A stretch of DNA of 23,673 nt from an uncultured delta proteobacterium (GTDB lineage: Bacteria > Desulfobacterota > Syntrophobacteria > BM002): positions 1-23,673 of the forward strand of contig CAVQGX010000028.1 in assembly GCA_963712115.1 (NCBI GenBank). The letters are read 5' to 3'. Below the pieces are notes generated by a model. The model was not told where the DNA came from, did no database searches, and worked only from the letters and a program-made list of their open reading frames with translations. Shown here one piece after another: positions 1 to 19,772 of the stretch; within the stretch, counting starts at the first letter, position 1, and the number at the start of each line of letters is the position of its first letter. The translations under genes and the position numbers were made by a program.

Positions 1-318
1 GATATGTGTAAAGACTTCTACCCTAACGATCCCCTGGTACGAATTGGGTTTGCTGCAGTGACATGCGGTCTATTCGCCCTTGGAGGGTTGTGGTGGAGGA
101 GGTTTGGTCTTTTGAACAAAATTGCAGGTACCCTTCTTATCTTGATCTCTCCCCTAGTGATTCTGGCACACGGAGTCAGCAACAATCTGAACCAGGGATT
201 GTCCATTGCATTGGGTAGTGTAACAACCCAAAGTTGGATAGCCCTTGGCGGGCTTATAGCTATTTTGCTTTTGACTGCTCTTCTGGCATTTACTTTAGGA
301 GAAGAGATAGGACCGTAA
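1..318 (+). CDS. Hypothetical multi-pass membrane protein, probably 5'-partial
   Basis: Frame is open from base 1 and has three hydrophobic segments. The TAA stop lies inside the GTAAAG left end of the downstream element. Confidence 0.55.
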   Translation, partial: DMCKDFYPNDPLVRIGFAAVTCGLFALGGLWWRRFGLLNKIAGTLLILISPLVILAHGVSNNLNQGLSIALGSVTTQSWIALGGLIAILLLTALLAFTLGEEIGP

Positions 319-648
319 AGCTTACCCAAGGCAGAACAAATCAGGTCAGATCCCAATGGTTTTGCCCGTAAAGATAAGCGAGCTTTTTTGGAGTACCGGA
401 GCATCAGAAATTCCAAATCACAAATCACAAATATCAAACAAATCACAATGACCAAAATTCAAAATTCCAAACCTGTTTCGGTCATTTGGTATTGGAATTT
501 GAGATTTGTTTGTAATTTGGTGCTTGGAGTTTGGGATTTCATTATTCCATCACTCCATCATTCCAGCAGACTTCCTCATCAAGGAAAGACCCTAGAAGCC
601 CCCCTGGGGGCGGACCAAATCCGGATCCTCAGGGCCCGGACTCTTTAC
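315..648. mobile_element. Non-coding MITE-like element with short terminal inverted repeats
   Basis: GTAAAG at 315-320 and CTTTAC at 643-648. Contains a heptamer inverted array, octamer-like GGAGTA/ATTCCATC repeats and GC-rich hairpin sequence near the right end. No target-site duplication seen. Confidence 0.4.
407..540. repeat. Heptamer-periodic imperfect inverted repeat with 66-bp arms
   Basis: Left arm 407-472 (AAATCAC-type units) and right arm 475-540 (reverse complement AAACTCC/AAATCTC-type units), 2-nt spacer. Confidence 0.85.
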
Positions 649-748
649 CTCCACTGCCATATTCATGGTCTCGCCCCTTTGTTTCCATTAGTTCTTAATA
701 GCTGATCAACCCACCGAAAAAAATGGGGAAACGCCTGTAACAATACTC

Positions 749-777
749 TTGCCCTAAGTTAATCAATTGTGTAATCT
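749..777 (+). promoter_or_regulatory. Candidate sigma70 promoter for the small HTH gene
   Basis: TTGCCC-17 bp-TAATCT, about 70 nt upstream of ATG 848. Confidence 0.4.
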
Positions 778-847
778 GATCGTATATTGATGGTGGATCT
801 CGAATAGCAAATCCACCCCAGTTAGCTATTTAGAAGGAGGCTAAGCC

Positions 848-1024
848 ATGGATCCCGCTGAAAAGATAGCGCTAAAGGAAAAACTGGCCGAGAAGGGAAT
901 TGGTTTCGACAAGGCAGCCGAAGAGCTTAAGGTGACAGCATCGCTTTTGGCCCTTTATTTGAAGGACGACTCGAATCCCGTCCCCAAAAGAATTATTGAT
1001 GGGCTCAACAAAATGCTTGAATGA
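848..1024 (+). CDS. 58-aa Cro/XRE-like helix-turn-helix protein (absent from the ORF track)
   Basis: Strong RBS AAGGAGG. Translation MDPAEKIALKEKLAEKGIGFDKAAEELKVTASLLALYLKDDSNPVPKRIIDGLNKMLE fits the XRE pattern L-x2-KG-x4-AA-x2-L-x-V-x3-L. Confidence 0.72.
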   Translation: MDPAEKIALKEKLAEKGIGFDKAAEELKVTASLLALYLKDDSNPVPKRIIDGLNKMLE

Positions 1025-1036
1025 TGACCTGCGGAG

Positions 1037-1360
1037 CTACATCAATTTCCCCGCCAGCCAGAAAAGCAGCATACCGGCAACAACTGTTCCTCCTAACGAT
1101 CTGGTTTTCAGGGCAAGAATAAAGGTGGGCACAGCCACGATAAACTGGGGTCGCAAAAGATCTAAGTAGCGAGGGCTACCGCCGGTTACAAGCTCTGGAA
1201 AGACCAGAGCGCTGAGGATGGCTACCGGTATGAAATCCAACCACTCGGCGAACCATCGGGGCAGCTGTCGCCGCGACAGAAAAAGAATAGGAACCCACCG
1301 TGGGATGTAGGTGACCAACCCCATACCAAGTACCAACAACAGATACTCAGATTTAATCAT
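1037..1360 (-). CDS. azlD: AzlD-family branched-chain amino acid export subunit
   Basis: GMGLVTYIPRWVP and WLDFIPVAILSALVFP motifs; overlaps the stop of azlC. Confidence 0.9.
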   Translation of the reverse strand: MIKSEYLLLVLGMGLVTYIPRWVPILFLSRRQLPRWFAEWLDFIPVAILSALVFPELVTGGSPRYLDLLRPQFIVAVPTFILALKTRSLGGTVVAGMLLFWLAGKLM

Positions 1361-2075
1361 TGAGAATATCCTTCCGTCGACAGACTACCCCGATAAAGGC
1401 AGCCAAAACTGAGGCCAGAACAATATAACTGTTTCCTGGAACCAAAAGTGCGAGAAATACTGCCAATACTCCAGCGATGATAGCGGTAAGAACATACAGT
1501 CGCCCTCTGAGTTGAAATACCAAAAGACAGAGAAACATGGCGATGAGCGCATAATCGATACCGAATGCTCCTGCCGGAATGAACTGGCCGCTATAGGCCC
1601 CCACAATGCTGCTGGCGATCCACGCCACATTAGCAGTCTGGTTTACCACCAAAGCCTGACGCCAATCCCAATTACTATCTCGAAACCTGGTCAGATTGAC
1701 GGCAAAGCTCTCATCGGTAACGCCGTAAGCAAAAAGGGCAGTCCAGCTCTTGTTCACAGACCGCAGATAGAGGGCCAGGGAGGAACTCATTAATAAGTGC
1801 CTAAGATTGATAACAAAAGTGGTAAGTACTATGGACAGTGCCGAGGCCCCTCCACTGAGCATTGAAACTGCTACGAACTGAGAACTTCCCGCAAAAACCA
1901 GCAAAGACATAAGGCCGATTTCAACAGGGTGGAGCCCAGCCTTCTGGGCCAGTACGCCAAATGCCAATCCTATGGGGAAATAGCCCAAGCAGATTGGCCA
2001 GCCAGCCTTTATGCCTTCTTTACATATGAACGTGGTAGCAAGGTGCTCTCCCGCAGGATCTGAAGTATTGACCAT
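1353..2075 (-). CDS. azlC: AzlC-family branched-chain amino acid export permease
   Basis: PICLGYFPIGLAFG, MSLLVFAGSSQF, INLRHLLMS and TDESFA motifs. Start moved to ATG 2075, which has a GGAG RBS. Confidence 0.92.
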   Translation of the reverse strand: MVNTSDPAGEHLATTFICKEGIKAGWPICLGYFPIGLAFGVLAQKAGLHPVEIGLMSLLVFAGSSQFVAVSMLSGGASALSIVLTTFVINLRHLLMSSSLALYLRSVNKSWTALFAYGVTDESFAVNLTRFRDSNWDWRQALVVNQTANVAWIASSIVGAYSGQFIPAGAFGIDYALIAMFLCLLVFQLRGRLYVLTAIIAGVLAVFLALLVPGNSYIVLASVLAAFIGVVCRRKDILND

Positions 2076-2264
2076 ATGCGCTCCAGCTGATGGCATTAAT
2101 GCGAATCAAATACTTTACTATTTCCCTTCCACATAGGGCAAGTGGCTGGGCTAAACTTTTTTGCACCTCCTATTATCCCCACCATTTTTCCCACCTGTCC
2201 CCAAAATACTTCTGTAGAAAATAAGCCGAAAAATAATTGAAAACAATTACCTACACAAATATTT

Positions 2265-2280
2265 CGGCACGATCATTGCT
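2265..2280 (+). promoter_or_regulatory. Sigma54 (-24/-12) promoter
   Basis: CGGCACGATCATTGCT: GG-N10-GC, close to the consensus TGGCACG-N4-TTGCW. Confidence 0.7.
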
Positions 2281-2340
2281 CTTTGAGAGGGAGATGCTGG
2301 TTTAGTCTGCAACAGGCCATTGGCAGTTTTTGGAGTTAAT

Positions 2341-3705
2341 ATGTTGATACCAAAGCAATTTACCAGAATATTTCCATATCTTTTTGTACTTTTTTTTGTA
2401 CTTATTGTCTTTCTGCCGAAGAATATATTGGCGCAAGATATTCAAAAAGATACGCAATTAATTCATCGAGTTTCCCCTGGGGAGTCACTTCACAAGATCG
2501 CCCGGCAGTATCTGCCACTGACTGAGGAATTAACCGTCGATGACTTGGTCGAAAAGATCAAAGTGCTGAGTGGCGTAGAGGGGTCTTTGATCCGGCCCAA
2601 CCAATGGTTACTCATACCTCTGGTTCGCTCGCGCCCTGTGGCAGCCAAGACTGTTCCTAAGCAGACAGATTTTGAGGCCAAAGGTATATATATTAATCGC
2701 TACACCATGGCCAGCCAAAGAATTAAGAGACTTATAGATGAGTTGGTGGCGGTGGGGGGTAATACAGTTATTCTTGACGGCAAAGACATGTCTGGAAATC
2801 TGTCCTATCCTTCCCGAGTCAATCTAGCTCAAGAGATTGGAGCAAATGCTAGACCGGTGACCAGGGATTTGGCGAAAATGATTCATTATCTCCACGAGAG
2901 AGGAATACATGTTGGGGTGAGACTGGTTCTTTTCTACGATCAACTTTTGGCAGAGCAGAAACCCGACCTGGCCCTGAGAGATGGCCTCACAGGAAATCTT
3001 TTATTGGAAAATGGCATATCAGCGTGGGTTGATCCATCTCATCCAGTGGTGCAGGATTATAACTTGGCCATTGCCAGGGAATTGGCAGAAATGGGGGTAG
3101 ATGAAATCCAATTTGACTACATAAGATTTCCTACGAAAGAAAATGTCCAATACGGTGAATCCGGCCTTTATGGGAAAACAGTTCCTAGATACAGGATAAT
3201 TACTGACTTTCTTGCCCGGGCTCGGAGAGAGCTGGCTGCACACCAGGTCCTATTATCCATTGATGTATTTGGGATTATTGCCTGGGGCAGGTCCAAAGAT
3301 ATCGAGATGACCGGTCAGAAGATAGAAGAATTGGCCGGACACTGTGACGTGATCTCGCCAATGATCTATCCTTCTCATTTTCATAACCCCTTTCGAGGTA
3401 TTGCCGATCCCGGCGAACGCCCTTACTTACTCGTCTCGGAGACATGTAAGAGATTCTCACGGCTGCTGAAAAACTCACAAGCAACCCTCCGGCCCTGGAT
3501 TCAGGCCTTTCCCCTTGGGACTGACCATTTTGACGAAGAATATGTTTTCGAGCAACTTAAGGCGCTGGATGAGTCCGAAGTCCGAGGATGGCTGCTCTGG
3601 AGTGCGGGGAACAAATACGATGTCGCCTGGAAGGCTTTAGCTGAACTTAATGATGATTCCTTTGGAGAAAGGATCCTAGGGGCAAATTTGTTTTTGGGTG
3701 ATTAA
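2341..3705 (+). CDS. Exported LysM-domain plus DUF4015-like putative glycoside hydrolase
   Basis: Signal peptide; LysM-like HRVSPGESLHKIARQY...LIRPNQWLLIP; KGIY, WVDPSH, GVDEIQFDYIRFP, ISPMIYPSHF and LRPWIQAF motifs. GGAG RBS before ATG 2341. Confidence 0.85.
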   Translation: MLIPKQFTRIFPYLFVLFFVLIVFLPKNILAQDIQKDTQLIHRVSPGESLHKIARQYLPLTEELTVDDLVEKIKVLSGVEGSLIRPNQWLLIPLVRSRPVAAKTVPKQTDFEAKGIYINRYTMASQRIKRLIDELVAVGGNTVILDGKDMSGNLSYPSRVNLAQEIGANARPVTRDLAKMIHYLHERGIHVGVRLVLFYDQLLAEQKPDLALRDGLTGNLLLENGISAWVDPSHPVVQDYNLAIARELAEMGVDEIQFDYIRFPTKENVQYGESGLYGKTVPRYRIITDFLARARRELAAHQVLLSIDVFGIIAWGRSKDIEMTGQKIEELAGHCDVISPMIYPSHFHNPFRGIADPGERPYLLVSETCKRFSRLLKNSQATLRPWIQAFPLGTDHFDEEYVFEQLKALDESEVRGWLLWSAGNKYDVAWKALAELNDDSFGERILGANLFLGD

Positions 3706-3728
3706 AAAGAAGGTGAGAGGAATTAGGA

Positions 3729-4013
3729 TTAAGACCAGATGAAGCGGACGCCCATTCCGGCTGGCTCATTTTTTTTGTCCGAGGATGAGTTGCTGGCCCA
3801 AACGACTTGAGCCATAACCTGCATGGAAGCTGCTGGAGCCTTAACAGACAACACGAACCTTTCTGAGAGAGGAAGGGGCTTATCGCAATAAATAAATGCC
3901 CCTTGCATGCTAATATCTCTAGTTTCTCCCTGCATTGAACCTTCAGAGGTCAACATTGTAACAGGCCACCTGACCTCCACTCTAGGTTGCAACCTTCTTT
4001 CTCTACCGTCCAT
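3729..4013 (-). CDS. Single-domain PilZ protein (c-di-GMP receptor)
   Basis: RxxxR (RRLQPR), DxSxxG (DISMQG), VVW and GMGVRF. Start set at ATG 4013. Confidence 0.88.
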   Translation of the reverse strand: MDGRERRLQPRVEVRWPVTMLTSEGSMQGETRDISMQGAFIYCDKPLPLSERFVLSVKAPAASMQVMAQVVWASNSSSDKKNEPAGMGVRFIWS

Positions 4014-4269
4014 CCTTATATCCCTTTCTTGTGGGATAACTTTAGCAAAAAACCGGATATCGGTCCACTGCTCAAATAGCACCTGCAAAATTTCTAGCAG
4101 AATACGGCTAATGGAGGTCGAGCGTAATCAGAATTGAGCAGCGGTACACAAGATTGTCGATGGAGCAAGGAATCAACAAGGATACTCGACGCCTTACCAG
4201 TTTGATCAAGCATGCTGAGGACAGGTTACGGAAAAGGAGGGAAAGTTGCAAGACCTTTCTTAACCCTAG

Positions 4270-4800
4270 TTAAGCAACAACTCCTGAAAAAAGACCAATT
4301 ATAGCACTGGCAAAGGCACCGATAATGAAGGTAATGTAAGCCAGCCTCAGGAAACGATACTTCTTTTTGGCAAGAAACATCCCTAAGGTATAAAGTTCCT
4401 TTACTTGTACTTCATAGGTGAAGCTGGGATTATTCATGACCTCTTCCATACTCGTTTCAAACTCTTCATAGGTTAGTCGGACGAAATCGGCAAAAAAGAG
4501 CAAGTTGAATCCCGGAGATTTAATTGATTCCCTCGTCTCTCTTTTAAAAAAAAACGGTATTTTTGGCATTACAGCGTATGTTGCCAGACCAATGGTCATC
4601 AAGCAAAAGGCAATTAATACAACTATAGCCCACTTTAGATGGGGTTGGGTGATGTAGCCGACGGATAGGGTTATAACTACTGAGGTAATGGTCAGAAGCA
4701 TGTTGGCTTTCATGTCTGCCATTGAACTAAGCTGCGTGTGATGCATCCGTGTCTGACGCACGAGATGGTCTAGATGTGACCCCGCCTGTTTGATTTCCAT
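4270..4800 (-). CDS. Pycsar effector-like (DUF5706/PycTM) membrane protein
   Basis: SSMADMKANMLL motif, two TM helices, AVMP, NLLFF, KKKYRFLRLAY and a final TM helix. GGAGG RBS before ATG 4800. Confidence 0.8.
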   Translation of the reverse strand: MEIKQAGSHLDHLVRQTRMHHTQLSSMADMKANMLLTITSVVITLSVGYITQPHLKWAIVVLIAFCLMTIGLATYAVMPKIPFFFKRETRESIKSPGFNLLFFADFVRLTYEEFETSMEEVMNNPSFTYEVQVKELYTLGMFLAKKKYRFLRLAYITFIIGAFASAIIGLFSGVVA

Positions 4801-4950
4801 CAGACTTCCTCCCATAGGTGGTGTTGCATGGTTAATGACAAGGAGAGCTAGCACTAGATACTAATACTGTCAAGGTTAGAATTTCTCATGGCGTTTCCTG
4901 AGATAACGGTTTAATATAATTCATTCGCCTGTCATAAAGAGGTATTCACC

Positions 4951-5502
4951 ATGACACTCAGAACCAAAATGTTGATGTCAGCGGTGTCGTTACTTTTTCT
5001 GGTTATCGGTGCGGGAACAGTATACCTTATCAGTCATAAGATTCTCTCTATGGAGTTTCGAGCCGCTAATGACGCTCTACATAGACAAGAAGCTCCAATA
5101 ACGCTCGACTTCCTAATCCCAGCTGGGACTTATGTTGACGCGACAATGACCATAGGAGAAGTAGTAAAGATTCGCATTCAAAAACCAAAGAAAAAATTCA
5201 ATAGTTTTCTTCGGAAATTCTCAGAAAGTATACCGCGCAAATACCTCCTTTTGGGGACCATGATCCTCTATCTATTTTGGACATTCCTTTTTCTTGTTTT
5301 TTTTAGAATATTCACCTGGATAGGCTACAGTGTTGCCCTCAGTATCAGCTTTCTTGCTGGATCTTTAGTCTATTTTTTTATGCCTGATTTGATGTTTGGC
5401 AGAATAGATGACGTGATATTTTTGGGTTGGGCGGTAGCTTTCACGGTGGCTTGCAGGTTGTATTCTAAGCGGAGGAGGTTGAAACACTCATACTCTAGAT
5501 AA
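4951..5502 (+). CDS. Hypothetical membrane protein
   Basis: GAGG RBS, N-terminal TM helix, three C-terminal TM helices, basic tail. Confidence 0.7.
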   Translation: MTLRTKMLMSAVSLLFLVIGAGTVYLISHKILSMEFRAANDALHRQEAPITLDFLIPAGTYVDATMTIGEVVKIRIQKPKKKFNSFLRKFSESIPRKYLLLGTMILYLFWTFLFLVFFRIFTWIGYSVALSISFLAGSLVYFFMPDLMFGRIDDVIFLGWAVAFTVACRLYSKRRRLKHSYSR

Positions 5503-5546
5503 TTAAAGCATCTCAATTCGTGAGTTGTCTAGGCCAACTCAGTTTA

Positions 5547-5960
5547 TCATTGAACTATTCCTCTGGCTTTTCTGTCATAGTATATAAATTTCTTTTTATA
5601 AAGTTCGTTTTCAGGATAAAGAGTAACCAGCTCGGAATAAATATCTCTATTCAGCTTTGTTTCCTTGGTAGGAACTTTCTTGACAATCTCGTAAAGTATT
5701 TCTTCAATCCTCTCGTTGCATCTTACATCCTCATGTGATGCGTGACCAAGGTATCTGTCTGCGTCAAAGTATAGTGATTTTATCTCCGGATCAAGAGTAT
5801 CAATCGCTGCGAGTCTAGCTCCTTCAAAGTTAGAATCACTAATAAGAATACGTATTCTCTTTATAGTATCTAGATTTGTTTGATCTTTACTTTCTTCAAA
5901 ACAACTAATAACAAGAATCAAAGAAAAACCTACGATAGAGATAATAGCCAGTCTCTTCAT
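5547..5960 (-). CDS. Hypothetical lipoprotein
   Basis: GAGG RBS; MKRLAIISIVGFSLILVISC signal with a lipobox-like Cys; AT-rich gene. Confidence 0.65.
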   Translation of the reverse strand: MKRLAIISIVGFSLILVISCFEESKDQTNLDTIKRIRILISDSNFEGARLAAIDTLDPEIKSLYFDADRYLGHASHEDVRCNERIEEILYEIVKKVPTKETKLNRDIYSELVTLYPENELYKKKFIYYDRKARGIVQ

Positions 5961-6045
5961 TTTCTTTGCCTCTCTGATAAATAGCTTCCGTTCTCGAGGC
6001 CTGTAAAAATTAAGCCAAAAAACTTCTTCATTAACGGATGGTATT

Positions 6046-6074
6046 TAACCCGGATTCATGAAACATCCGGGTTA
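6046..6074. repeat. Perfect 10-bp inverted repeat related to the TIRs of the 17136-17581 MITE
   Basis: TAACCCGGAT-tcatgaaac-ATCCGGGTTA. Confidence 0.75.
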
Positions 6075-6319
6075 GTCGCCGCGCTCAGCAAAATCTATTG
6101 TCAGGCAGGACCAACAAGCTCTTTATATGCACTTTGCGTACCAAGAGACATGGTTTAGCGGCCATGGGATTTGGAATATATATTTGGTCCTCCGGATAAA
6201 AACCCTCATACTTGCAGAACTGTTGGGAATACAAATTTAGACAATAAATTAATAATTCCATATACTTGCAATGCACAAATTTGAACAACAGTAATTACTC
6301 CAAATATATCAAATAGTTG

Positions 6320-6348
6320 TTGACAACTAATTTAATTTACCTTATGTT
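6320..6348 (+). promoter_or_regulatory. Sigma70 promoter of mucR with an overlapping palindrome
   Basis: TTGACA-17 bp-TATGTT. Palindrome TAGTTGT-tg-ACAACTA at 6314-6329 covers the -35 box. Confidence 0.6.
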
Positions 6349-6406
6349 GTATGAGTTTGCAACTTTGCCAACAATACGGCCACAATGACGAAAGGAGGAC
6401 AATGAT

Positions 6407-6928
6407 ATGGCGAAGACTTTGACGGAAATGGCAGCCGAAATTGTAGCTGCGCAGGCTTCACATGCGGTGATGGCGTCTGACGATATGGTGGGAGCACTGA
6501 AAAAGACGTTTGAAGCCCTCAAAAATATCAAAACAATCGAAGAGGGCGGGCCGGAAGGAGAGGCTCCTCCAGTAGATCCTAAAAAATCTATTCAGAGAAA
6601 CTACATCATTAATCTTGAAGATGGCAAGAAGTACAAGCAGCTTACTGCAAGGACTCTTGCAAAATTCGGCATTACACCGGCAGAATATCGTAAGAAGTGG
6701 GGCTTTTCTCCTAGACAGCCGTTAGCGGCCAAGTCTCTTAGCGCCAAACGTAGAAAAACTGCCAAAGCTCTTGGCCTCGGGGAGAAATTACAGTTGGCAA
6801 GAAAGGCGAAGGCTGCTACAAAGGCTGGGGCGAAGCCAAAGGCTGCGGCGAAGGCGAAGCCTCCAAAGAAGGCAAAAGCCGCACCCAAGAAGAAGAAAAA
6901 AGCTGCAAGGAAAAAGAAAAAGGCATAA
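6407..6928 (+). CDS. mucR: MucR/Ros-family regulator with a Lys/Ala-rich C-terminal tail
   Basis: AAEIVAA N-terminus, VDPKKSI, LEDGKKYK and TPAEYRKKWG...PLAA...S.KRR..AK.LGLG motifs; AAGGAGG RBS. Confidence 0.9.
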   Translation: MAKTLTEMAAEIVAAQASHAVMASDDMVGALKKTFEALKNIKTIEEGGPEGEAPPVDPKKSIQRNYIINLEDGKKYKQLTARTLAKFGITPAEYRKKWGFSPRQPLAAKSLSAKRRKTAKALGLGEKLQLARKAKAATKAGAKPKAAAKAKPPKKAKAAPKKKKKAARKKKKA

Positions 6929-6952
6929 GGAAGTTGGCTGGTAAAATAAAGG

Positions 6953-6980
6953 AAAAGTCTGCCAATAGGCGGGCTTTTTT
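6953..6980 (+). terminator. Rho-independent terminator of mucR
   Basis: AAAAGTCTGCC-aata-GGCGGGCTTTTTT. Confidence 0.8.
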
Positions 6981-7008
6981 ATTTATATAAAGAGTTAGTG
7001 ATCTACAG

Positions 7009-7142
7009 GATGTAGATTTGAGATTTAGGATTGTACATTTTGAACCAATATATATCTCTTTAAATTATCGATCTTCAATCTGCCGTAAGGAATTTGATGT
7101 AGTCAATCTTAAATCTACAATCTAGAATCTGCAATCTAAATA
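7009..7142. repeat. Heptamer-periodic inverted array
   Basis: Left GATGTAG ATTTGAG ATTTAGG ATTGTAC ATTTTGA; right CAATCTT AAATCTA CAATCTA GAATCTG CAATCTA. Confidence 0.75.
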
Positions 7143-7144
7143 AG

Positions 7145-7405
7145 TTACTCCTTCAATGACTCAAGGTAAGATCTCAGAGAGTCAAAATCTGGATATTTTT
7201 TAAGTTCATCCCCAGACCTGAGGTCGTAGACAACCACGGCAACAGGCTCATCCAGCAATTGGGGCAGGCCCTCCCCCTCTTTGTCCATTACGGTTATGTA
7301 GGCGCGTCTTCCATTATAACTAATAAATTTTGTGTACCACGCTTGTCCGGCGCAACTTGCAGAAATACGGAATCCGTGATCTTTCATAATCTCTTCTACG
7401 CTCAT
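7145..7405 (-). CDS. Hypothetical protein (86 aa)
   Basis: GAGGTGG RBS, globular composition, co-oriented directly after the MCE gene. Confidence 0.7.
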   Translation of the reverse strand: MSVEEIMKDHGFRISASCAGQAWYTKFISYNGRRAYITVMDKEGEGLPQLLDEPVAVVVYDLRSGDELKKYPDFDSLRSYLESLKE

Positions 7406-7444
7406 ACTTGCCCACCTCTACTGCTGGAGTGAAAGCGAGATAAA

Positions 7445-8125
7445 TCAAATGCTCTTAAGTTTATCCAACTTTACCTCTAAAGTCTCTACCTCTTTCTCCT
7501 TGCCCAACTGCCGCAGACGTTTTCTCAACTCTCGTAGCGCCTCTTCCAGTCGGGGTAACACCTCTTCCTTGAAATATTCACGTGTCTCGACCCCGGCTTG
7601 CCCCAATTTGTTTAACCAATAATCCATCTCACGTTCCAACTCCTTATACCATTCCCTTTCAGGAAGTTGACTCATCTCCTCTTCCCAGCGTTCAAGCTCT
7701 CGCTCAAGCTGCTTCCTCCAAGCCTCGAGTCCTCTTTCGGTTTTTTCCAACTGGAGGGAAAGATAGGTACTGCCCTCTACGGCAGTTCCGGTTGGGAGAG
7801 GATTTCCCTCCTCAGAGAGGTTGACCATGTTGACAAGGCTTTGCCCTTGCCTCTGGGGATCGGTTTGAATGAGGAATCGGCTTTCATTCGTGACTTTATC
7901 CGAGAAATCTTTCCTTATTTGCAATTGCACCGAGGCTTGACCTTGAACATTTTGTTTCACCGACTGGACCTTACCGATTTTTTGTTCATTCCATAATACC
8001 GGGTCATTTTGCTTTAGTCCCTCGGTCCTGTCGTACAAGACAGTAAGTTGCAGGCTACCAACACAGGCAGCAGCCAGTACATAGACGAAGATTAACGGCA
8101 AGATCCAGAAACTGTTATTTCTCAT
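7445..8125 (-). CDS. MlaD/MCE-domain protein with a coiled-coil C-terminus
   Basis: N-terminal hydrophobic segment ending in a lipobox-like AAAC; GLKQNDPVLWNEQKIGKV matches the MCE pattern GL-x-x-G-x-x-V-x-x-x-G-x-x-IG-x-V; helical E/K/R-rich tail. Confidence 0.8.
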   Translation of the reverse strand: MRNNSFWILPLIFVYVLAAACVGSLQLTVLYDRTEGLKQNDPVLWNEQKIGKVQSVKQNVQGQASVQLQIRKDFSDKVTNESRFLIQTDPQRQGQSLVNMVNLSEEGNPLPTGTAVEGSTYLSLQLEKTERGLEAWRKQLERELERWEEEMSQLPEREWYKELEREMDYWLNKLGQAGVETREYFKEEVLPRLEEALRELRKRLRQLGKEKEVETLEVKLDKLKSI

Positions 8126-8205
8126 CTTTTTCCCCCGGTTGGAGAACTTGACTGCATACTGTATATCTAAGTTAACAATAATGTCATATTGGCTGGGAAC
8201 AGTAA

Positions 8206-8577
8206 AGGAGGGAAGACATAAAGGTATCCCAATATCTTCCCTTTTTCCGGCACGTGAAGGGAATCAAAGGTTGTAGGGCTGGGGAAGGGTTCGGCGAGAG
8301 GTACTTTTATAAATGGTGGGGAAAAGCCTGCAAGAGCCTGGGTATAGAAGGAGTGGATTTATATGGCGGGACTCGTCATAGCTCGGCGATTGCACTGAGG
8401 CAATATAGGACGCCCGAAGAAATCAGGCGAGTAACAATGCATAGCACGAATAAGGCATTCGAGAGGTATTTTAGGATCGAATCAGATGATCTCCGGTCAA
8501 TCTACCAAGATACAGTAATGAGAAACGAGAAAGCTGGCAAAGTCATTACCTTTCCAAGGGAGACAGGTCAAAAATGA
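8206..8577 (+). pseudogene. C-terminal remnant of a tyrosine recombinase/integrase
   Basis: WWGKACKSLGIEGVDLYGGTRHSSA (box II-like), MHST and catalytic RYF. The N-terminal domains and first catalytic Arg are absent; in-frame stop at 8203-8205. Confidence 0.78.
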
Positions 8578-12595: not shown

Positions 12596-12811
12596 GTCCA
12601 CTCTGGACTCACTCTACTTCTTTCGCATATAATTACAGACATCTTTTAAGTCTGTATGCCTAGAAGCTAAATCCCAGATTACTCTCTAAGTCTAGAAACT
12701 CTCTCAAGATCGCATTCTCGTATCCCTTAGCAATAGGCAGCAATTTAGAGAATCAGATGATTCTTAATGCGTGACGATTTACTAGCCAGTTGAGTGGAAC
12801 CAACTGAGTAC

Positions 12812-14140
12812 ATGATGACCACGAGAAGATTTTTTACAACCATCCTCTTTCTTATATTCCTTCAGACTCTTCTAGTCACCCAGGCTTTTGCGAAGGCTAA
12901 CGCCGGACCGGATCAAAGGGTGAATGAAGGAGACAAGGTATCCCTGGATGGTTCGAAGTCCAAGCCTAAGGGTCACGATACGATCCAAAGTTACTTATGG
13001 AAACAGGTTGAAGTTGAAGGAAATCCCGTCACAATAAAGGATGCAGACGAAGTTATAGCGAGTTTTATCGCCCCACAGGTTTCAAAGAACACGAAACTTA
13101 CCTTTAAGCTGATAGTCAGATTTGCTTCTGGCAAAGAAGATAATGATGATACGAAAGTCTACGTATTAGATCGAGATGATGATGAAGATGATGATGATAG
13201 AGATGCTAATGATCCACCCAAGGCAGACGCCGGACCTGATCAGACGGTGCCTGAGAAAACTATAGTCACCTTAGACGGGTCAAATTCATCTGATCCTGAT
13301 GACGGCATTAAGTCTTATCTCTGGAAACAGACTTCAGGACCGTCAGTTAGTTTATCTAATCCTAGGGCGATTAAACCCACCTTTACGAGCCCCAGTGTTG
13401 CATTCAGCAAATCAAAATCACTTAAATTTGAGTTAACGGTTACTGATCATGGTGGTTTGAAAGATACCGATACCACTGTTGTCAATGTGACCGGGGAAAA
13501 TGATCCGCCCAGGGCAGATGCAGGACCTAACCAAAATGTGGACGAGGAAACTATAGTCACCTTAGACGGGTCAAATTCATATGATCCTGATGATGGCATC
13601 GCATCATATCAGTGGATACAAATAGCAGGACCGTCAGTAAGTTTATCTAATCCCGAGGCAGTTCAACCCACCTTTTCAGCACCGACTGTAGGAACGGATG
13701 GTGTTTCGTTGACCTTTGAGTTAACAGTGACCGATTACGACAGTTTGCAATCAGCGGATAATATAATTGTAAATGTGATCTGGCTCAACGATCCTCCTAC
13801 AGCAAATGCTGGAGTTGATCAGACAGTGCTTGAGAAAAGTACAGTCACCTTGGACGGGTCAAATTCATCTGATCCTGATGATGGCATTGTGACATATCAG
13901 TGGAAACAGGTAGCAGGACAGTCAGTCTTCCTTTCCGATCCCACAGATGATCAACCGATTTTTGAGGCTCCAAGTTTTGATGACATTGGTGACAAATCGC
14001 TCATCTTCGAGTTGATAGTTACAGATGAAGGCGGTTTGCAATCTAGTGATGAAACAAACGTTACTGTCTCAAATTTTGAGAAAGATAACCCAGGCGCATC
14101 AGGAGGAGGTTGTTTTATCACAGCTGCAGCGGATGGCTAG
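12812..14140 (+). CDS. Secreted protein with four PKD/K319L-like Ig repeats and a C-terminal GGGCFI motif
   Basis: Signal peptide ending AFA; four A[ND]AG.[DN]Q.V.E...V.LDGS.S...Y.W.Q..G repeats, with repeats 2-4 also similar at DNA level; Asp-rich linker; ends GGGCFITAAADG. Confidence 0.88.
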   Translation: MMTTRRFFTTILFLIFLQTLLVTQAFAKANAGPDQRVNEGDKVSLDGSKSKPKGHDTIQSYLWKQVEVEGNPVTIKDADEVIASFIAPQVSKNTKLTFKLIVRFASGKEDNDDTKVYVLDRDDDEDDDDRDANDPPKADAGPDQTVPEKTIVTLDGSNSSDPDDGIKSYLWKQTSGPSVSLSNPRAIKPTFTSPSVAFSKSKSLKFELTVTDHGGLKDTDTTVVNVTGENDPPRADAGPNQNVDEETIVTLDGSNSYDPDDGIASYQWIQIAGPSVSLSNPEAVQPTFSAPTVGTDGVSLTFELTVTDYDSLQSADNIIVNVIWLNDPPTANAGVDQTVLEKSTVTLDGSNSSDPDDGIVTYQWKQVAGQSVFLSDPTDDQPIFEAPSFDDIGDKSLIFELIVTDEGGLQSSDETNVTVSNFEKDNPGASGGGCFITAAADG

Positions 14141-14194: not shown

Positions 14195-14513
14195 ATGCTC
14201 CATTCAGACTCTGGCACTGTGAATAACATACTTAAATCCACACTTCTGCCATTTTGGACTAGCCACTACATTTTGTGCCAGGTTCTTGGGGGATGAAGTG
14301 TGAATTAAGGGATGTAATCTTAAATTATTTCATTCCGAGAACTCGCATTTTTATCCACCCTTCCATGTTGCCCATCCTATCTAAACTTCTTCTGACAAAT
14401 GGCACTTTTATTCCAGTTTATGTAACTGATTTACTTACAACTTCTAATCTGGTTTCCATCAGCAAATGAGCTAACCATTTGAAAATCGATAGAAAGTTAG
14501 CGCGACACCTCAC

Positions 14514-14529: not shown

Positions 14530-14678
14530 ATGCTTAACCGCTAGGGCTTCTGGTCTAATGCCCCCAAACACCCCATTAGATTTCGGTGGAGACTAGTAGT
14601 GAGCTTCGCCCAAGTCCCATCTCCTCGACAGATAATTGCCAAAAGCCCTCACACTCCGTCATGGGAGGTTTCCCTGCG

Positions 14679-14864
14679 ATGACCCATACATGCCCTCGCT
14701 GCAATAGAAAGTTCGTCGGGGATAAACCCCCGATGTTTATCGCTGGCGGTAAAGGAATTTATTTTTTCTGTAGCATTAGATGCCGAGACAAATGGGTATA
14801 TCCCCGTGATTCAAGATTGAATTTGGAGCAGAAGCCATCTGGCCTTCAGCGGGATTTTTCGTAA
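14679..14864 (+). CDS. Small TRASH/YHS-like Cys-rich metal-binding protein (61 aa)
   Basis: GGAGG RBS; CPRC...GIYFFCSIRCRDKW. Confidence 0.6.
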   Translation: MTHTCPRCNRKFVGDKPPMFIAGGKGIYFFCSIRCRDKWVYPRDSRLNLEQKPSGLQRDFS

Positions 14865-14893: not shown

Positions 14894-15136
14894 ATGCATC
14901 AACCCCCGAGTGACAGATGTGTAGATTGTGTCTGGTGGTATGAAGGGCCTATATTGTGCGAGGGTTGCCCTAACAATCCAGAATCAGAGGCAATGAAAAT
15001 GCCTTGTTCTCAGTGTAAGAAGATTCTATCTGTAAGCGATTTTTGTGAGATACACTATGAAGAGGACGGCCTTCACTTGCTCTGTACCAAGAAGTGCAAA
15101 AACGAGTGGGAGGGACTTCGGACCACGAATGAGTAG
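14894..15136 (+). CDS. Small Cys-rich protein with a CxxC/CxxC module and a TRASH-like module
   Basis: AGGTGA RBS; CVDC..CEGC, then CSQC...LCTKKCKNEW. Confidence 0.6.
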   Translation: MHQPPSDRCVDCVWWYEGPILCEGCPNNPESEAMKMPCSQCKKILSVSDFCEIHYEEDGLHLLCTKKCKNEWEGLRTTNE

Positions 15137-15213: not shown

Positions 15214-15451
15214 ATTGTGGTATCCACCTTGGCCGTGGAAATAGTAATTTTCGTATTCATCTATTAAGGATATTGGTGTATGTTTAAAACGAGTGTCCTC
15301 TTTTTGCCGAGGGCAGATGCCCCGAACAAAATCTCGTTGAAAAATGTGTTCAATTCCTCGGTTCGCAACCGCTGGAGAATATGAGAGGGTACGTGATAGT
15401 CGATGCTGCCTAAAAGACCTGATTGGCTTTGATGATTCTGGAGAAATCTAC

Positions 15452-15814
15452 GTGGATCAGCAGACCAGACGAAAAACCACCAGAGTTCCTGTGTTCTGCA
15501 TTGTTCATCTCCTGCAGACCGATCTCAATAAGGTTGGAGGCAAAATGTACAACTTAAGCATTGGAGGTTTCGGGCTTAAAACCAATTATCCTATTTCCAT
15601 CGCAGAACAGCTCACAGTGGCCTTCCAACTGCCGAAGACAATCGGCCTTGTATCTGGTCTGGGTCAAGTGGTCTGGCGTCAATTCCACGGTGATACACCT
15701 GGACATGAGAAGACTTTGTTCACCGCAGGAATAGAGTTTTTGAGCCTCAGCAAACCCTCCAGAAAAGCTGTTCGCGATTGCGTCAGAATGTTAGCCTCTC
15801 CACCAATCGAATAG
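15452..15814 (+). CDS. Single-domain PilZ protein
   Basis: RRKTTR, NLSIGG, GQVVW and AGIEF. GGAG RBS before GTG 15452. Confidence 0.85.
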   Translation: MDQQTRRKTTRVPVFCIVHLLQTDLNKVGGKMYNLSIGGFGLKTNYPISIAEQLTVAFQLPKTIGLVSGLGQVVWRQFHGDTPGHEKTLFTAGIEFLSLSKPSRKAVRDCVRMLASPPIE

Positions 15815-15889: not shown

Positions 15890-16582
15890 CTATTTAATTA
15901 GCGTGAGGTTTTTGGGAGCAGCAGGTAGGGCGTCCACACCGCCGACAATGATAGTCACCGTTTCAGAAGCACTCAGCGGTGGTGTACCAGTGTCATTTAC
16001 AGTGAAGAGAACGCCATAGTTTCCGGCATCTCCATTAGTGGGCGTCCACCAGAAAGTGCGGTTAGCAGAGTCAAAATTAGCGCCTGCCGGGAGATGGCTA
16101 ACTGAATAGCTCAAAGCGTCACCGTCAGGGTCAGTTGCCATTACAGTAAACTGAAGCAATTGGCCCTCAACAGTAGTCTTTTTACCTATGGGATTTAATA
16201 CCGGTGAGTTGTTGACTGAGCCATAGGACACTTCATTAGAATAATCACTTTCATTTCCGTAGATATCATAAGCAGTAGCTGCAAAGTAGTAGGGCTCAGT
16301 GTCGATAAGGTCTGTTATCGTGCAACTAGTCTGGTTGCCCACGTCTGTGGTAACATCGTAGTTACGGCTGGAATTGCCATAATATATTTTGTAGCCAGCA
16401 AGATCTGGGTGGGTAACCGGATCCCATATCAACGTTACTTGTGCTGGATAAGCATTCGAGGTGAGAATAAGTATGCATACAGCAGCCAGGATAAATACCA
16501 GAGCAGTGCGAGATAATAAGGAAAGATCTGATCGAAGACCCCGGTACCCAATAAAGCTCGGCGAAGTTTTGAATGGTGACAC
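15890..16582 (-). CDS. Secreted fibronectin type III plus Ig-like (He_PIG/cadherin-like) protein
   Basis: GGAGG RBS before GTG 16582; signal peptide; VTLIWDP..AGYKIYYG..YYFAATAYD..GNESDYSNEV; N.SPVL...ATDPDGD.L..LP.GA.FD..WTP. Confidence 0.85.
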   Translation of the reverse strand: MSPFKTSPSFIGYRGLRSDLSLLSRTALVFILAAVCILILTSNAYPAQVTLIWDPVTHPDLAGYKIYYGNSSRNYDVTTDVGNQTSCTITDLIDTEPYYFAATAYDIYGNESDYSNEVSYGSVNNSPVLNPIGKKTTVEGQLLQFTVMATDPDGDALSYSVSHLPAGANFDSANRTFWWTPTNGDAGNYGVLFTVNDTGTPPLSASETVTIIVGGVDALPAAPKNLTLIK

Positions 16583-16642
16583 AGCGCACCTCCCTCCCCG
16601 CAGCTTAAGGCCTACAGGCATTGAGAAACTGACTTTTACATA

Positions 16643-16658
16643 GGCAAGACTGGTGCCG
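16643..16658 (-). promoter_or_regulatory. Sigma54 promoter for the FN3 gene
   Basis: Minus strand reads CGGCACCAGTCTTGCC: GG-N10-GC. Confidence 0.65.
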
Positions 16659-16949
16659 GGAAGAAGGAACGAATCTTTTTTTTATGTAAAGAATTAAAAT
16701 GTCTTGTTTGGCTGATAAGTTACAATGCACTCATAAGAAGACTCCTGCTCTAGTGGAGATACCTGCAGTGGCAAAAACCGTGCAATTTGTAATACATCAG
16801 GCAAGAAATCGGTATGCCAGCGGATAACCGTTTTGCGGCACTTGTTGACGAAATTTGGCAGCCCTATGCCCACTATCTATATCATAGTTGAGCAATCGAT
16901 TTTGCTTAAATATTTATAATTAATAATAAATAACTCTTATTATTCAATC

Positions 16950-16965
16950 TGGCACGATCTTTTCA
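16950..16965 (+). promoter_or_regulatory. Sigma54-like promoter with a variant -12 box (TTTC)
   Basis: TGGCACGATCTTTTCA preceded by an AT-rich tract and TGGCA-N6-TGCCC at 16856. Confidence 0.5.
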
Positions 16966-16975
16966 TTGTGTGGAT

Positions 16976-17038
16976 TTACACTGCGTCACCTTAAGCCCCA
17001 TCGGCTTTTTCAGGTCGAGTCGATGGGGCATTTCTTTT
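16976..17038 (+). ncRNA. Candidate small RNA
   Basis: ORF-less unit between the sigma54-like promoter and a 12-bp terminator-like stem (16995-17029) followed by ATTTCTTTT. Confidence 0.35.
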
Positions 17039-17135
17039 CCAATCTTCCTTGCTGCTCATCCACCGCAGCAGATAGATGTTATTTCTTTGAAGTAAGTTGC
17101 TATTTAACAAACTCTTGCGCGTTGTTGCAACCTTA

Positions 17136-17581
17136 GCCCGGATATTTCATGAATTCACGCCCTGGCGTGACTGCGACCACTTCAAGATCTCAGATTTCAG
17201 ATTTTAGATTTCAGACTGATGGGTGTCTGATGCAAACCGGTTATTTGAGTAAAACAAGAATACAACTTTAACTTCCACCGTCTGCCTTGTCTTACTCGGT
17301 CTTGCGCAATCTCAAATCCGCAATCTGCAATCCATAATCGTCCTTCTTGGCGTCCTCTGGTGTTCCTTCGACAGGCTCCCCGCGACGACGCTCGGGACGG
17401 GCAGGACAAGCTCACCCTGCGACGCGCCGTTCGGGAACCAACACCCCGCCGTTGCCAGGTGGCCCGTCCATCCTCTTCGCGCTCGCTTCGCTCGGCTCAA
17501 GCCCTTACCGCAAGCGGTATCTGCGACAAGCGGGTTCCCAATTACGCGGTCTCGCGACAGCAATTCATGAAATATCCGGGC
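17136..17581. mobile_element. MITE with 20-bp perfect TIRs and TA on both flanks
   Basis: TA|GCCCGGATATTTCATGAATT ... AATTCATGAAATATCCGGGC|TA; no transposase inside. Confidence 0.85.
17185..17339. repeat. Heptamer-periodic inverted array inside the MITE
   Basis: AGATCTC AGATTTC AGATTTT AGATTTC ... CAATCTC AAATCCG CAATCTG CAATCCA TAATC. Confidence 0.75.
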
Positions 17582-17713
17582 TAGGTCACCAGTTGGCCTG
17601 TACGTTTGGTTGTTGGGGTCTTGCATTTGTGGTAAGCTGGGAAGTCGTCACGGCATCGACCTGGTAGAGGAGAAATCCTCCGAGAAATAGTCTTTTAACT
17701 GCGAGTTGCTTCT

Positions 17714-18313
17714 ATGGAAAAAGAAAGAAGGCGACATTTGAGAGCCAGACTCGATTGGCCTGTCAGTATTCATATCGGAGAAGAGTCCTTGGAACGGGTA
17801 ACATTCGACATCGGCCCGAGTGGTGCGTTTGTCCACGGCTTGTCCCTCATAGAGCTGTATGAAGTCTTTGATATGACCGTTATTGGACCTGACCGTCCAA
17901 TGACGACCAAAGCAAGGGTGGTCTGGTCGAGAAATGAAGTGGTTCCAGGACTGGAACAGGATATGCCGCGTGGCATGGGTGTCGAGTTCATCAAGATCTC
18001 TGATGAAGACCGGAAATTCGTTTCCTCTTTCATTTCAGGTCTTGATTTTGCCGTGTACTTGGAATCCAAGGCTGCACATGAAGTTGAGGACGGGTTGATA
18101 GAGGAACATCTGATAGAGAAGCAGAAGGAAGAAGACAAGATTAACCCTGCTCAAAAATCACCCAAAAAATGCCCCCGAGGCCACAAACATGTGTCCTGGT
18201 CTGCCGATGAAGACTATCTTTTCTGTTGGGACTGCAATGCATGGTATGGTCTCGCTGAGTGTGTTAATCCGAAGAATGGTGATTCCTCAAGTGGTACTGA
18301 TTCAGAGGGCTAA
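17714..18313 (+). CDS. PilZ-domain protein with a C-terminal putative zinc ribbon
   Basis: RRRHLR, DIGPSG, VVW and GMGVEF; then CPRGH...CWDC. Confidence 0.85.
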   Translation: MEKERRRHLRARLDWPVSIHIGEESLERVTFDIGPSGAFVHGLSLIELYEVFDMTVIGPDRPMTTKARVVWSRNEVVPGLEQDMPRGMGVEFIKISDEDRKFVSSFISGLDFAVYLESKAAHEVEDGLIEEHLIEKQKEEDKINPAQKSPKKCPRGHKHVSWSADEDYLFCWDCNAWYGLAECVNPKNGDSSSGTDSEG

Positions 18314-19580: not shown

Positions 19581-19772
19581 ATCCTAATGTTGCAGACCCA
19601 TTCCGAGGAAAAACGCGCAAAAACGCGCCAGATGTGGCTGCGCACAGGCTCGGACAGGTCGAGGCGTACTTGACCCTACGTGAAGTCCTGTCCGAGGTGA
19701 GCACAGCCTCAGATGGCGTGCTATCGCGCGAGCGCAGCGGTCTTTGCCGGTTTGGGTTTGCAACATTAGGGT
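19581..19772. mobile_element. 192-bp MITE with ~20-bp TIRs and an internal hairpin
   Basis: ATCCTAATGTTGCAGACCCA ... TGGGTTTGCAACATTAGGGT; internal CTCGGACAGG/CCTGTCCGAG stem; a second copy begins at 23602. Confidence 0.85.

Follow-up and report, generated by a model that had tools for sequence, protein, structure and literature searches.

A secreted FN3/Ig-like protein of an uncultured delta proteobacterium ends in a conserved orphan FN3 strand A that may act as a docking peptide

We analysed a 23,673 nucleotide (nt) stretch of DNA from an uncultured delta proteobacterium (contig CAVQGX010000028.1 of assembly GCA_963712115.1, hereafter the window, on contig C28), focusing on the gene at 15890..16582 of the minus strand. 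Its product, the window protein, is exported by a Sec signal peptide, and consists of an FN3 domain that lacks strand A (an A-less FN3), a complete Ig-like domain of the He_PIG family, and a tail made of a Pro-rich linker and an orphan FN3 strand A. Read from its sequence, both ends of the encoded unit fall at the A-B turn, and the mature unit has 186 residues. The tail is conserved amongst the orthologues and recurs at the ends of unrelated secreted proteins, where it alternates with sorting and docking modules. Our favoured but tentative explanation is that the tail docks in trans, completing A-less FN3 domains on other molecules, so that the window protein would be an adaptor or chain former; we consider this possible, though short of probable.

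The gene and its features are laid out as follows.

15890..16582, minus strand: coding sequence, GTG start, 230 amino acids (aa) plus stop, the same as database gene call P0002
15890..16621, minus strand: longer reading of the open reading frame (ORF), 243 aa from the first in-frame ATG at 16621
16589..16599, minus strand: ribosome-binding site GGGGAGGGAGG, 6 nt 5' of the GTG
16451..16582, minus strand: N-terminal signal peptide, residues 1-44, with a basic n-region, hydrophobic TALVFILAAVCILILT, then SNA and, past the cleavage site, YPA
16223..16450, minus strand: FN3 domain from strand B (QVTLIWD), without strand A, by Pfam fn3 and AlphaFold2 (AF2)
15944..16204, minus strand: complete He_PIG / cadherin-like Ig domain (Pfam He_PIG 1.2e-14; SraP and cadherin matches; AF2)
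15893..15943, minus strand: C-terminal tail GGVDALPAAPKNLTLIK, 17 residues, a Pro-rich linker and orphan FN3 strand A, up to the A-B turn
16644..16658, minus strand: sigma-54-type promoter-like motif CGGCACcagtcTTGC, one mismatch to TGGCAC-N5-TTGC

The GTG at 16582 is likely to be the start codon, given GGGGAGGGAGG and the agreement with P0002; the upstream ATG at 16621 is without a ribosome-binding site. The hydrophobic N-terminal stretch ends ...LTSNAYPA and leads directly into QVTLIWDP, with cleavage after SNA placed by the -3/-1 rule rather than by a prediction tool. At the other end, the protein reads LPAAPKNLTLIK, followed by a double stop, TAG TAA. The Pfam fn3 match (PF00041; 28.1 bits against a cut-off of 25, E 2.4e-6; residues 59-131 of the 243-aa reading) spans profile positions 13-81 of 84, leaving strand-A positions 1-12 unmatched, and by both Pfam and AF2 the domain is therefore short of the seven strands of an fn3 fold, strand A being the absent one. 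The He_PIG match (PF05345; 54.9 bits against a cut-off of 24; residues 140-226 of the same reading) covers profile positions 2-95 of 96, i.e. its full length. The first-pass annotation, made from the sequence alone, had described an FN3 domain starting at strand B, an Ig-like insert and a strand-A ending, and this description proved accurate.

The nature of the tail became apparent from tandem arrays of the same FN3 subfamily (P0224, P0225, P0232 and others), in which the Trp-to-Trp period peaks at 94-96 residues. Each internal domain of these arrays is preceded by a G strand, a linker, P-x-x-P-x-N-L-x-x-x-x, a turn (e.g. GNQQ) and VTLTW, giving the pattern ...P.AP.NL....GNQQVTLTW after the G strand. 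The tail aligns with the linker and strand A of the next FN3 domain and stops just short of the A-B turn. In five canonical FN3 domains the Leu of [NG]-L lies 13-14 residues before the strand-B Trp; joining the tail (NLTLIK) to the mature N-terminus (YPAQVTLIW) gives a spacing of 13, if the signal peptide is cleaved after SNA. The assignment of the ending to an FN3 strand A, first made from its pattern, can thus be placed on homology and canonical spacing. As in donor-strand subunits, the terminal extension is the strand missing from the protein's own Ig-like fold. A tail derived from the start of a further He_PIG domain was considered and rejected by eye, as the sequence lacks P-V-L-x-P-I-G and has the P-x-x-P-x-N-L of FN3.

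A homology search with the window protein returned 204 proteins at E <= 0.001, of which 120 were listed. The orthologous group (P0003-P0011, 75-97% identity, some of them fragments) keeps the tail in 9/9 cases, with the stop position within one codon, and the endings read ...NLTLIK, NLTLSKP, NLSLVK, NLTLRKP, NLRLSKP, NLTIIK and KLSLVK; the loci L030 and L031 have genuine stop codons after the tail. Conservation in nine orthologues, together with recurrence in unrelated proteins, indicates that the ending is real and not a chance resemblance. Continuation of homologues into a second FN3 domain had been named in advance as the mark of a simple truncation. The orthologues stop without such a domain, and TAG TAA makes read-through unlikely; truncation is rejected. 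Within the tail, the mean pairwise identities of N-L-T-L-I-K in seven orthologues are 0.9, 0.9, 0.3, 0.7, 0.1 and 0.9, an alternation which, at the level of sequence, is the pattern of a strand with one buried face. In the same seven proteins the mean identity of the tail (0.72) is below that of He_PIG (0.77) and of FN3 (0.88), and the tail falls in the lowest 13% of 12-column windows by conservation. At this shallow depth, weak constraint is not separable from none by the orthologues alone.

Beyond the orthologues, the tail is found in several settings. P0195, a 573-aa glycosidase-like protein ending LPSAPTHLRISYR-stop, carries the He_PIG and tail cassette at 61% identity, and no strand-B motif of the window protein's FN3 subfamily was detected in it. 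An A-less N-terminal FN3 and a tail occur together, in different architectures, in P0014, P0015, P0028, P0092, P0078, L056, the phage proteins L109, L113, L119 and L120, and an 818-aa protein of genome G022. In P0014 (135 aa) the FN3 domain is followed directly by IPATPNNLTIIK, and its sequence suggests a protein of the P0008 type that has recently lost He_PIG through an in-frame deletion. Amongst fifteen phage contig loci examined, the small phage proteins open with a signal peptide and an A-less FN3, after which come P-x-A-P-x-x-[FLI]-[RK]-I and another beta-prone stretch. The tail is present in L109, L113/L114, L119 and L120 and follows a second domain in L112, but is missing from L110/L111 and L118. 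In L109, L119 and L120 it runs on as a long Val/Thr-alternating stretch. Two of these genes on phage-like contigs (L056:3376-3741 and L109:3001-3366) adjoin endolysin and small membrane-protein genes, within or beside lysis cassettes; searches of PHROGs gave generic FN3-in-tail-fibre matches only.

The first-pass annotation had proposed searching the genome for other secreted proteins with strand-A endings. A loose tail pattern matched 61 of the 28,932 ORFs of the window's own genome, of which four looked real on inspection: the window gene, a 99%-identical copy on contig C66, a RimO-like cytoplasmic protein whose match is taken as chance, and C14_689. The last (C14:14134-16200) is a secreted glycosidase-like protein of 689 aa with one canonical FN3 domain; it ends TDPTPPAAPTGLTILEVK-stop, its C-terminal module finishing PPAAPTGLTILEVK-stop. 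Recent DNA exchange between the tails of C14_689 and the window gene was rejected, as only 13 nt (the PAAP codons) align.

The last 260 residues of C14_689 were used to search for relatives, giving 244 proteins at E <= 0.001, of which 120, with 34-65% identity, were listed and examined. Among the listed homologues (P0370-P0488), many different secreted enzymes have one C-terminal module (...TLGGNEGGGNSMYTVIIV) in common, and the chains finish as follows.

28/120 listed: module end (...GGN...MYTVIIV) not recognised by pattern
92/120 listed: module end recognised
40/92: orphan strand-A tail, including P0382 and P0385 (AAPTGLRKE)
11/92: chain ends at the module itself
40/92: longer end, namely type IX secretion system (T9SS)-type, dockerin-like, Cys/Asp repeats, membrane anchors or a complete FN3-like domain
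1/92: other short end, in neither class (P0419)

The orphan tail, present in about 40/92 among the matches listed, has the consensus ...DTTPPxxPxGLxIxQ-stop. The 40 tailed enzymes stop 2-8 residues after P-x-[GN]-L (e.g. DTTPPLPPTGLTIQ-stop; further examples are PDTTPPLPPTGLTIQ, PDTTPPTTPTGLTVIQ, LPPKAPSNLRIIN and PPAAPTGLIIEKMD), and when 7 other tails are included, all 47 measured stop 2-8 residues after the Leu, mostly 3-4. A Met start and a hydrophobic N-terminus are present in 27/40, which on this basis are probably exported; several of the remainder look like fragments. The Cys/Asp-rich ends of the module homologues correspond to PF11617 repeats, and some homologues have a dockerin-like end (PF00404) at the position of the tail. 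The tail keeps its length, stop and pattern over such divergence and behind many N-terminal catalytic contexts, which argues that it is not a functionless stub. Its alternation with sorting and docking modules points to a role in localization or attachment.

The proposed counterpart of the tail, the A-less FN3, turns out to be a general module of protein N-termini, where [AG]-x-V-T-L-x-W-D-P-N-T-E-P-D-L-A-G-Y-K-I-Y-Y-G comes directly after a signal peptide. It opens PKD, lectin and SLH proteins as well as giant tandem arrays with T9SS-type ends, and in every architecture the first FN3 domain after the signal peptide is without strand A, whilst internal copies have it. In the FN3-selected sets, 150 proteins were classed by regular expression as signal peptide plus A-less first FN3, and 132 of these had no tail-like ending; of the 18 flagged, 12 were judged real (in five families) and 6 false. 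The absence of strand A is therefore not peculiar to the window protein but usual for the first domain in this subfamily, mostly without a tail.

A phmmer search with the FN3 domain over the same 28,932 ORFs answered the companion suggestion, that other proteins starting at FN3 strand B be sought in the genome. Six further complete A-less N-terminal FN3 proteins were found (C66_241, C42_179, C15_190, C37_517, C37_677 and C14_817), together with one A-less fragment; C30_684 has six canonical FN3 repeats. The motif GGCFI[AD]TAA lies near the C-terminus in 5/6 of the complete proteins.

CFI-box-type paralogues (signal peptide, A-less FN3, Gly-rich linker, GGCFI[AD]TAA): C66:14731-15453, C42:19200-19736, C15:13396-13965, C37:175638-177188 and C14:63300-65750

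In an NCBIfam scan, CFI_box_CTERM (NF041770) matched C66_241 at 4.8e-12; neither C42_179 nor the window protein matched this model. In terms of the proposed docking pair, the window's genome encodes one donor-only protein (C14_689), one with both parts (the window gene) and six acceptor-only proteins. Genome G022 has five module-bearing proteins, with matches reaching the tail region, and two FN3 domains of the window protein's subfamily. Its 818-aa ORF starts with a signal peptide and A-less FN3 and ends ...DTTPPTPPQGIVLTVQ-stop. The enzyme module was found in 5/92 genomes of the order to which G022 belongs. Counting G000, 13/22 genomes match the window protein, and only G000 does so over residues 1-230; the full architecture was not found in any other species genome of the same order. 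At the loci examined in related genomes of the same genus, similar small A-less FN3 proteins of 112-209 aa are present.

To place these parts in three dimensions, we examined AF2 predictions. The mature window protein, modelled with a 33-sequence alignment, gave a mean predicted local distance difference test (pLDDT) score of 89.5 and a predicted template modelling (pTM) score of 0.57. Without the tail, the FN3 domain forms six strands (3-8, 17-25, 33-38, 42-48, 54-62 and 74-76) at pLDDT 85-95, and He_PIG is modelled at pLDDT 90-96. Tail residues 171-186 are coil, with no strand state, at pLDDT 64-69. The first-pass annotation had taken the N-terminal FN3 to be incomplete without the tail, and had offered completion by the tail within the same chain, a circular permutation around the Ig insert, as one of two arrangements. 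The confident six-stranded domain speaks against the former and the unpaired tail against the latter, as the tail does not pair with strand B of its own chain in the model. By Foldseek, the model resembles two-domain tandem Ig-like/cadherin structures such as SraP and cadherin EC1-2; in the ESM Atlas we found generic He_PIG/fn3 clusters only, and no model of the window protein. We also folded L056, a minimal protein of FN3, 18 linker residues and tail. Its FN3 domain reached pLDDT 85-96, the tail about 55, and residues 88-93 fell below 50.

The docking reading can be set out as follows. The last 12-17 residues would serve as a docking peptide, with a short Pro-rich linker presenting an FN3 strand A. 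By beta-strand addition this peptide would bind in trans to an A-less FN3 on another molecule, at its open strand-B edge and groove. The window protein would carry both acceptor (the N-terminal A-less FN3) and donor (the tail), and would therefore be an adaptor or chain-forming unit. Copies of it might link head to tail, or it might bridge tail-bearing enzymes, e.g. C14_689, to A-less FN3 proteins of the genome, including the five with the CFI-box type of anchor motif. That the tail binds anything, that its partner is an A-less FN3 and that chains form are the conjectural steps of this account. A wider version, which we regard as doubtful, would make tail and A-less FN3 the two halves of a split-FN3 docking system that is cohesin-dockerin-like and works by beta-strand complementation. 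The plug would sit on secreted enzymes and the socket on small membrane-anchored proteins or very long surface proteins, two-part proteins such as the window protein would serve as adaptors or self-polymerizing stalks, and phages would encode minimal socket-plus-plug proteins beside endolysins.

Several observations weigh against docking. The A-less FN3 is modelled confidently whilst the tail is left as coil, and the domain therefore seems not to need a donor; the tail of L056 gains just a three-residue strand state (98-100), at pLDDT of about 55. Most A-less FN3 proteins have no tail (the 132/150 given above), and P0315 and P0332 carry internal FN3 repeats that are themselves without strand A, on linkers of ~10-14 residues. 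When the window gene was compared with that of L031 (75% identical), the ratio of non-synonymous to synonymous substitution rates (dN/dS) was 0.72 for the 12 codons of the tail, compared to 0.26 for FN3 and 0.39 for He_PIG. The four non-synonymous tail changes include three that are conservative by eye. Amongst related genomes, 12/21 match the window protein and none does so over the full architecture; neither donor cassette was found in them with two queries, and the loci examined hold acceptor-like small proteins. Finally, an N-terminal A-less FN3 is present in 0/40 tailed enzymes compared to 27/79 untailed ones (Fisher p = 3.5e-6), or in 1/40 (p = 5e-5) when the G022 ORF is counted from an upstream ATG, these being relatives and not independent observations. 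Such near-exclusion fits a two-component system, and could equally reflect lineage, because T9SS-type ends go with A-less FN3.

Foremost amongst the alternatives to docking onto A-less FN3 is a functional tail with another partner, in which case a short C-terminal signal for sorting, retention or recognition, read by a different receptor or enzyme, would merely have arisen from an FN3 linker and strand A. The strong conservation of the tail, and its position where T9SS-type, dockerin-like and membrane-anchor ends stand in the enzyme family, fit such a signal. So do the near-absence of A-less FN3 from tailed enzymes and the acceptor-like proteins in genomes where no donor was found. However, the tail matched no sorting-signal model in the NCBIfam and Pfam scans, and it has no hydrophobic or basic anchor segment. 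Nor would a signal of this kind explain why the tail ends exactly at the A-B turn, or why A-less FN3 is abundant in the same genomes, and we regard it as unlikely.

Rather unlikely, in our assessment, is that the tail is an evolutionary leftover. Shuffling at the conserved strand B/C segment (VTLxWDPNTEPDLAGYKIYYG) would move cassettes running from strand B through the following strand A, leaving a harmless, disordered stub. This would account for the first FN3 being without strand A in all architectures and the internal copies having it; the coil in the AF2 model, the dN/dS of 0.72 and the low rank amongst 12-column windows are in keeping with it, as is the apparent recent loss of He_PIG from P0014. 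Against a leftover, length, stop and P-x-[GN]-L-x-[ILV] are kept across ~40 enzymes at 34-65% identity and in the P0195 cassette at 61%, and conservation alternates along the tail.

Completion within the chain, with the tail as strand A of its own FN3 in a closed, circularly permuted monomer around He_PIG, is disfavoured by the models and very unlikely. The canonical spacing between tail and mature N-terminus, the occurrence of both parts in several proteins and the strand state of L056 residues 98-100 are what it would predict, and P0078, with a 38-residue linker, has the best geometry for closure. In the AF2 model of the window protein, however, no strand follows residue 170 and the tail is unpaired, the Foldseek matches are two-domain tandem structures, the tail and linker of L056 are of low confidence, and tailed enzymes have no acceptor in the same chain. 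The termini of an FN3 domain lie at opposite poles. Only 6-7 residues separate strand G from the tail strand in L109, L113 and L119, and up to 10 when P0014 is included, too short to span the domain by this geometry; any pairing in these four proteins would therefore be between chains.

Docking by strand addition would have precedents. Chaperone-usher pili (Pap/Fim), Caf1, TasA, archaeal cannulae and Pam pili of the Candidate Phyla Radiation (CPR) are all donor-strand polymers. Subunits of chaperone-usher-type systems are short of the C-terminal G strand and receive an N-terminal donor, and their operons include dedicated chaperone and usher genes, whereas the window protein lacks strand A and its donor is C-terminal. 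Unlike such subunits, its A-less FN3 is stable alone in AF2. Pfam scans of the 17 window ORFs found PilZ, PKD, PLD, PBP5 and other families, and no chaperone or usher family. The general principle is that an Ig-like fold short of one strand is completed by a neighbour's terminal extension (PMC13278184).

By analogy, type V pili are the nearest mechanistic precedent and cohesin-dockerin the nearest organizational one. Type V pili of Bacteroidia (FimA, Mfa1) are non-covalent head-to-tail polymers formed without a chaperone-usher machine, in which a C-terminal donor strand replaces an N-terminal strand removed by proteolysis (PMC13655056). In the window protein, similarly, the signal peptide sits at the place of strand A and the spare strand is C-terminal. 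Type V pilins, however, are lipoproteins of two transthyretin-like domains that are cleaved by gingipains; the window protein has no lipobox Cys after its hydrophobic segment (...LTSNAYPAQ), is built of FN3 and He_PIG, and its polymerization is hypothetical. The likeness to cohesin-dockerin lies in a short C-terminal module on many secreted enzymes, in proteins with both receptor and plug, and in small anchored receptor-only proteins. Dockerin is a calcium-binding domain of ~70 residues, whereas the tail is a 12-25-residue linker plus one beta strand and its receptor is hypothetical. No Pfam dockerin (PF00404) match was found in the window protein or C14_689, and the equivalence is one of position only.

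Two further groups share domains with the window protein. Long tandem FN3/He_PIG/cadherin-like surface proteins (tandem-95, SraP-type) have the same domain families and the same interdomain linker plus strand A, but are single polypeptides of 1000-6000 residues, compared to its 186-residue mature unit; a head-to-tail chain of the window protein would copy such an array non-covalently. The CFI-box-CTERM paralogues share the signal peptide and A-less FN3, but end in GGGCFIATAAYG and a hydrophobic segment, whereas the window protein has He_PIG and the tail and no CFI box. Our literature search, with subscription journals outside its coverage, found nothing on C-terminal FN3 strand A, orphan strand-A tails or the CFI box.

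The genomic setting of the gene agrees with its earlier description as lying amongst PilZ genes and having a sigma54-type motif upstream. Pfam places PilZ-domain genes on either side, at 15344-15814 and 17714-18313 (both plus strand), and the promoter-like motif CGGCAC-N5-TTGC, with its one mismatch, stands 76 nt before the GTG. The window holds five such one-mismatch sites (16644-16658, 2265-2279, 14400-14414, 16771-16785 and 16950-16964) compared to 1.46 expected. A relaxed motif occurs within 400 nt upstream in 5/8 distinct genes scanned, namely 7 A-less FN3 genes and C14_689, which has no A-less FN3 (background 0.04 per kb per strand); on this sequence evidence a sigma-54 regulon of A-less FN3 paralogues is possible. 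Between the promoter of the FN3 gene and the next PilZ gene, positions 16659-17713 form ~1 kb without a convincing ORF, and Rfam at gathering thresholds gave no match in the window, this interval included.

The copy of the FN3 gene on C66 (C66:1587-2276, 99% identical) is disfavoured as a paralogue, since C28:14307-23673, within the window, matches C66:1-9368 at 99.65% over 9.4 kb and C66 is probably a strain-variant contig. Window positions 1-8222 are likewise ~98.4% identical to contig C47, and the assembly, with 5.99% contamination, seems to carry the window region in strain-variant copies. A repeat of ~190 bp at 19583-19772 recurs about 15 times elsewhere in the genome, on many contigs (82-95% identity), and is possibly a small mobile or REP (repetitive extragenic palindromic)-like element. 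The ORF at 4270-4854 (minus strand) matches PycTM, the transmembrane domain of Pycsar effectors (1e-21), which points to a gene of cyclic-nucleotide anti-phage defence. At 12794-14140 (plus strand) lies a 448-aa protein with four K319L-like PKD domains; its DNA is ~91% identical to C3 and 79-87% identical to C39, and the gene is therefore one of a recently duplicated family of surface-protein genes. The small Cys-rich (CxxC) ORFs at 14586-14864 and 14894-15136 (plus strand) have paralogous DNA on C3 and C14 at 83-88%, and family scans gave no significant match for either.

The window protein itself is an ordinary-looking FN3/Ig protein that exposes an unannotated C-terminal motif. If docking is true, a tag of ~12 residues would define a new minimal surface assembly of extracellular enzymes and adhesins, and donor-strand logic would extend to the FN3 fold without chaperone or usher. 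Hundreds of unexplained ...DTTPPxxPxGLxIxQ endings in environmental genomes would then acquire a function, and protein engineering would gain a useful natural peptide-domain pair. Should docking prove wrong, the orphan tail would still be a conserved, widespread and unannotated C-terminal motif that deserves a family model.

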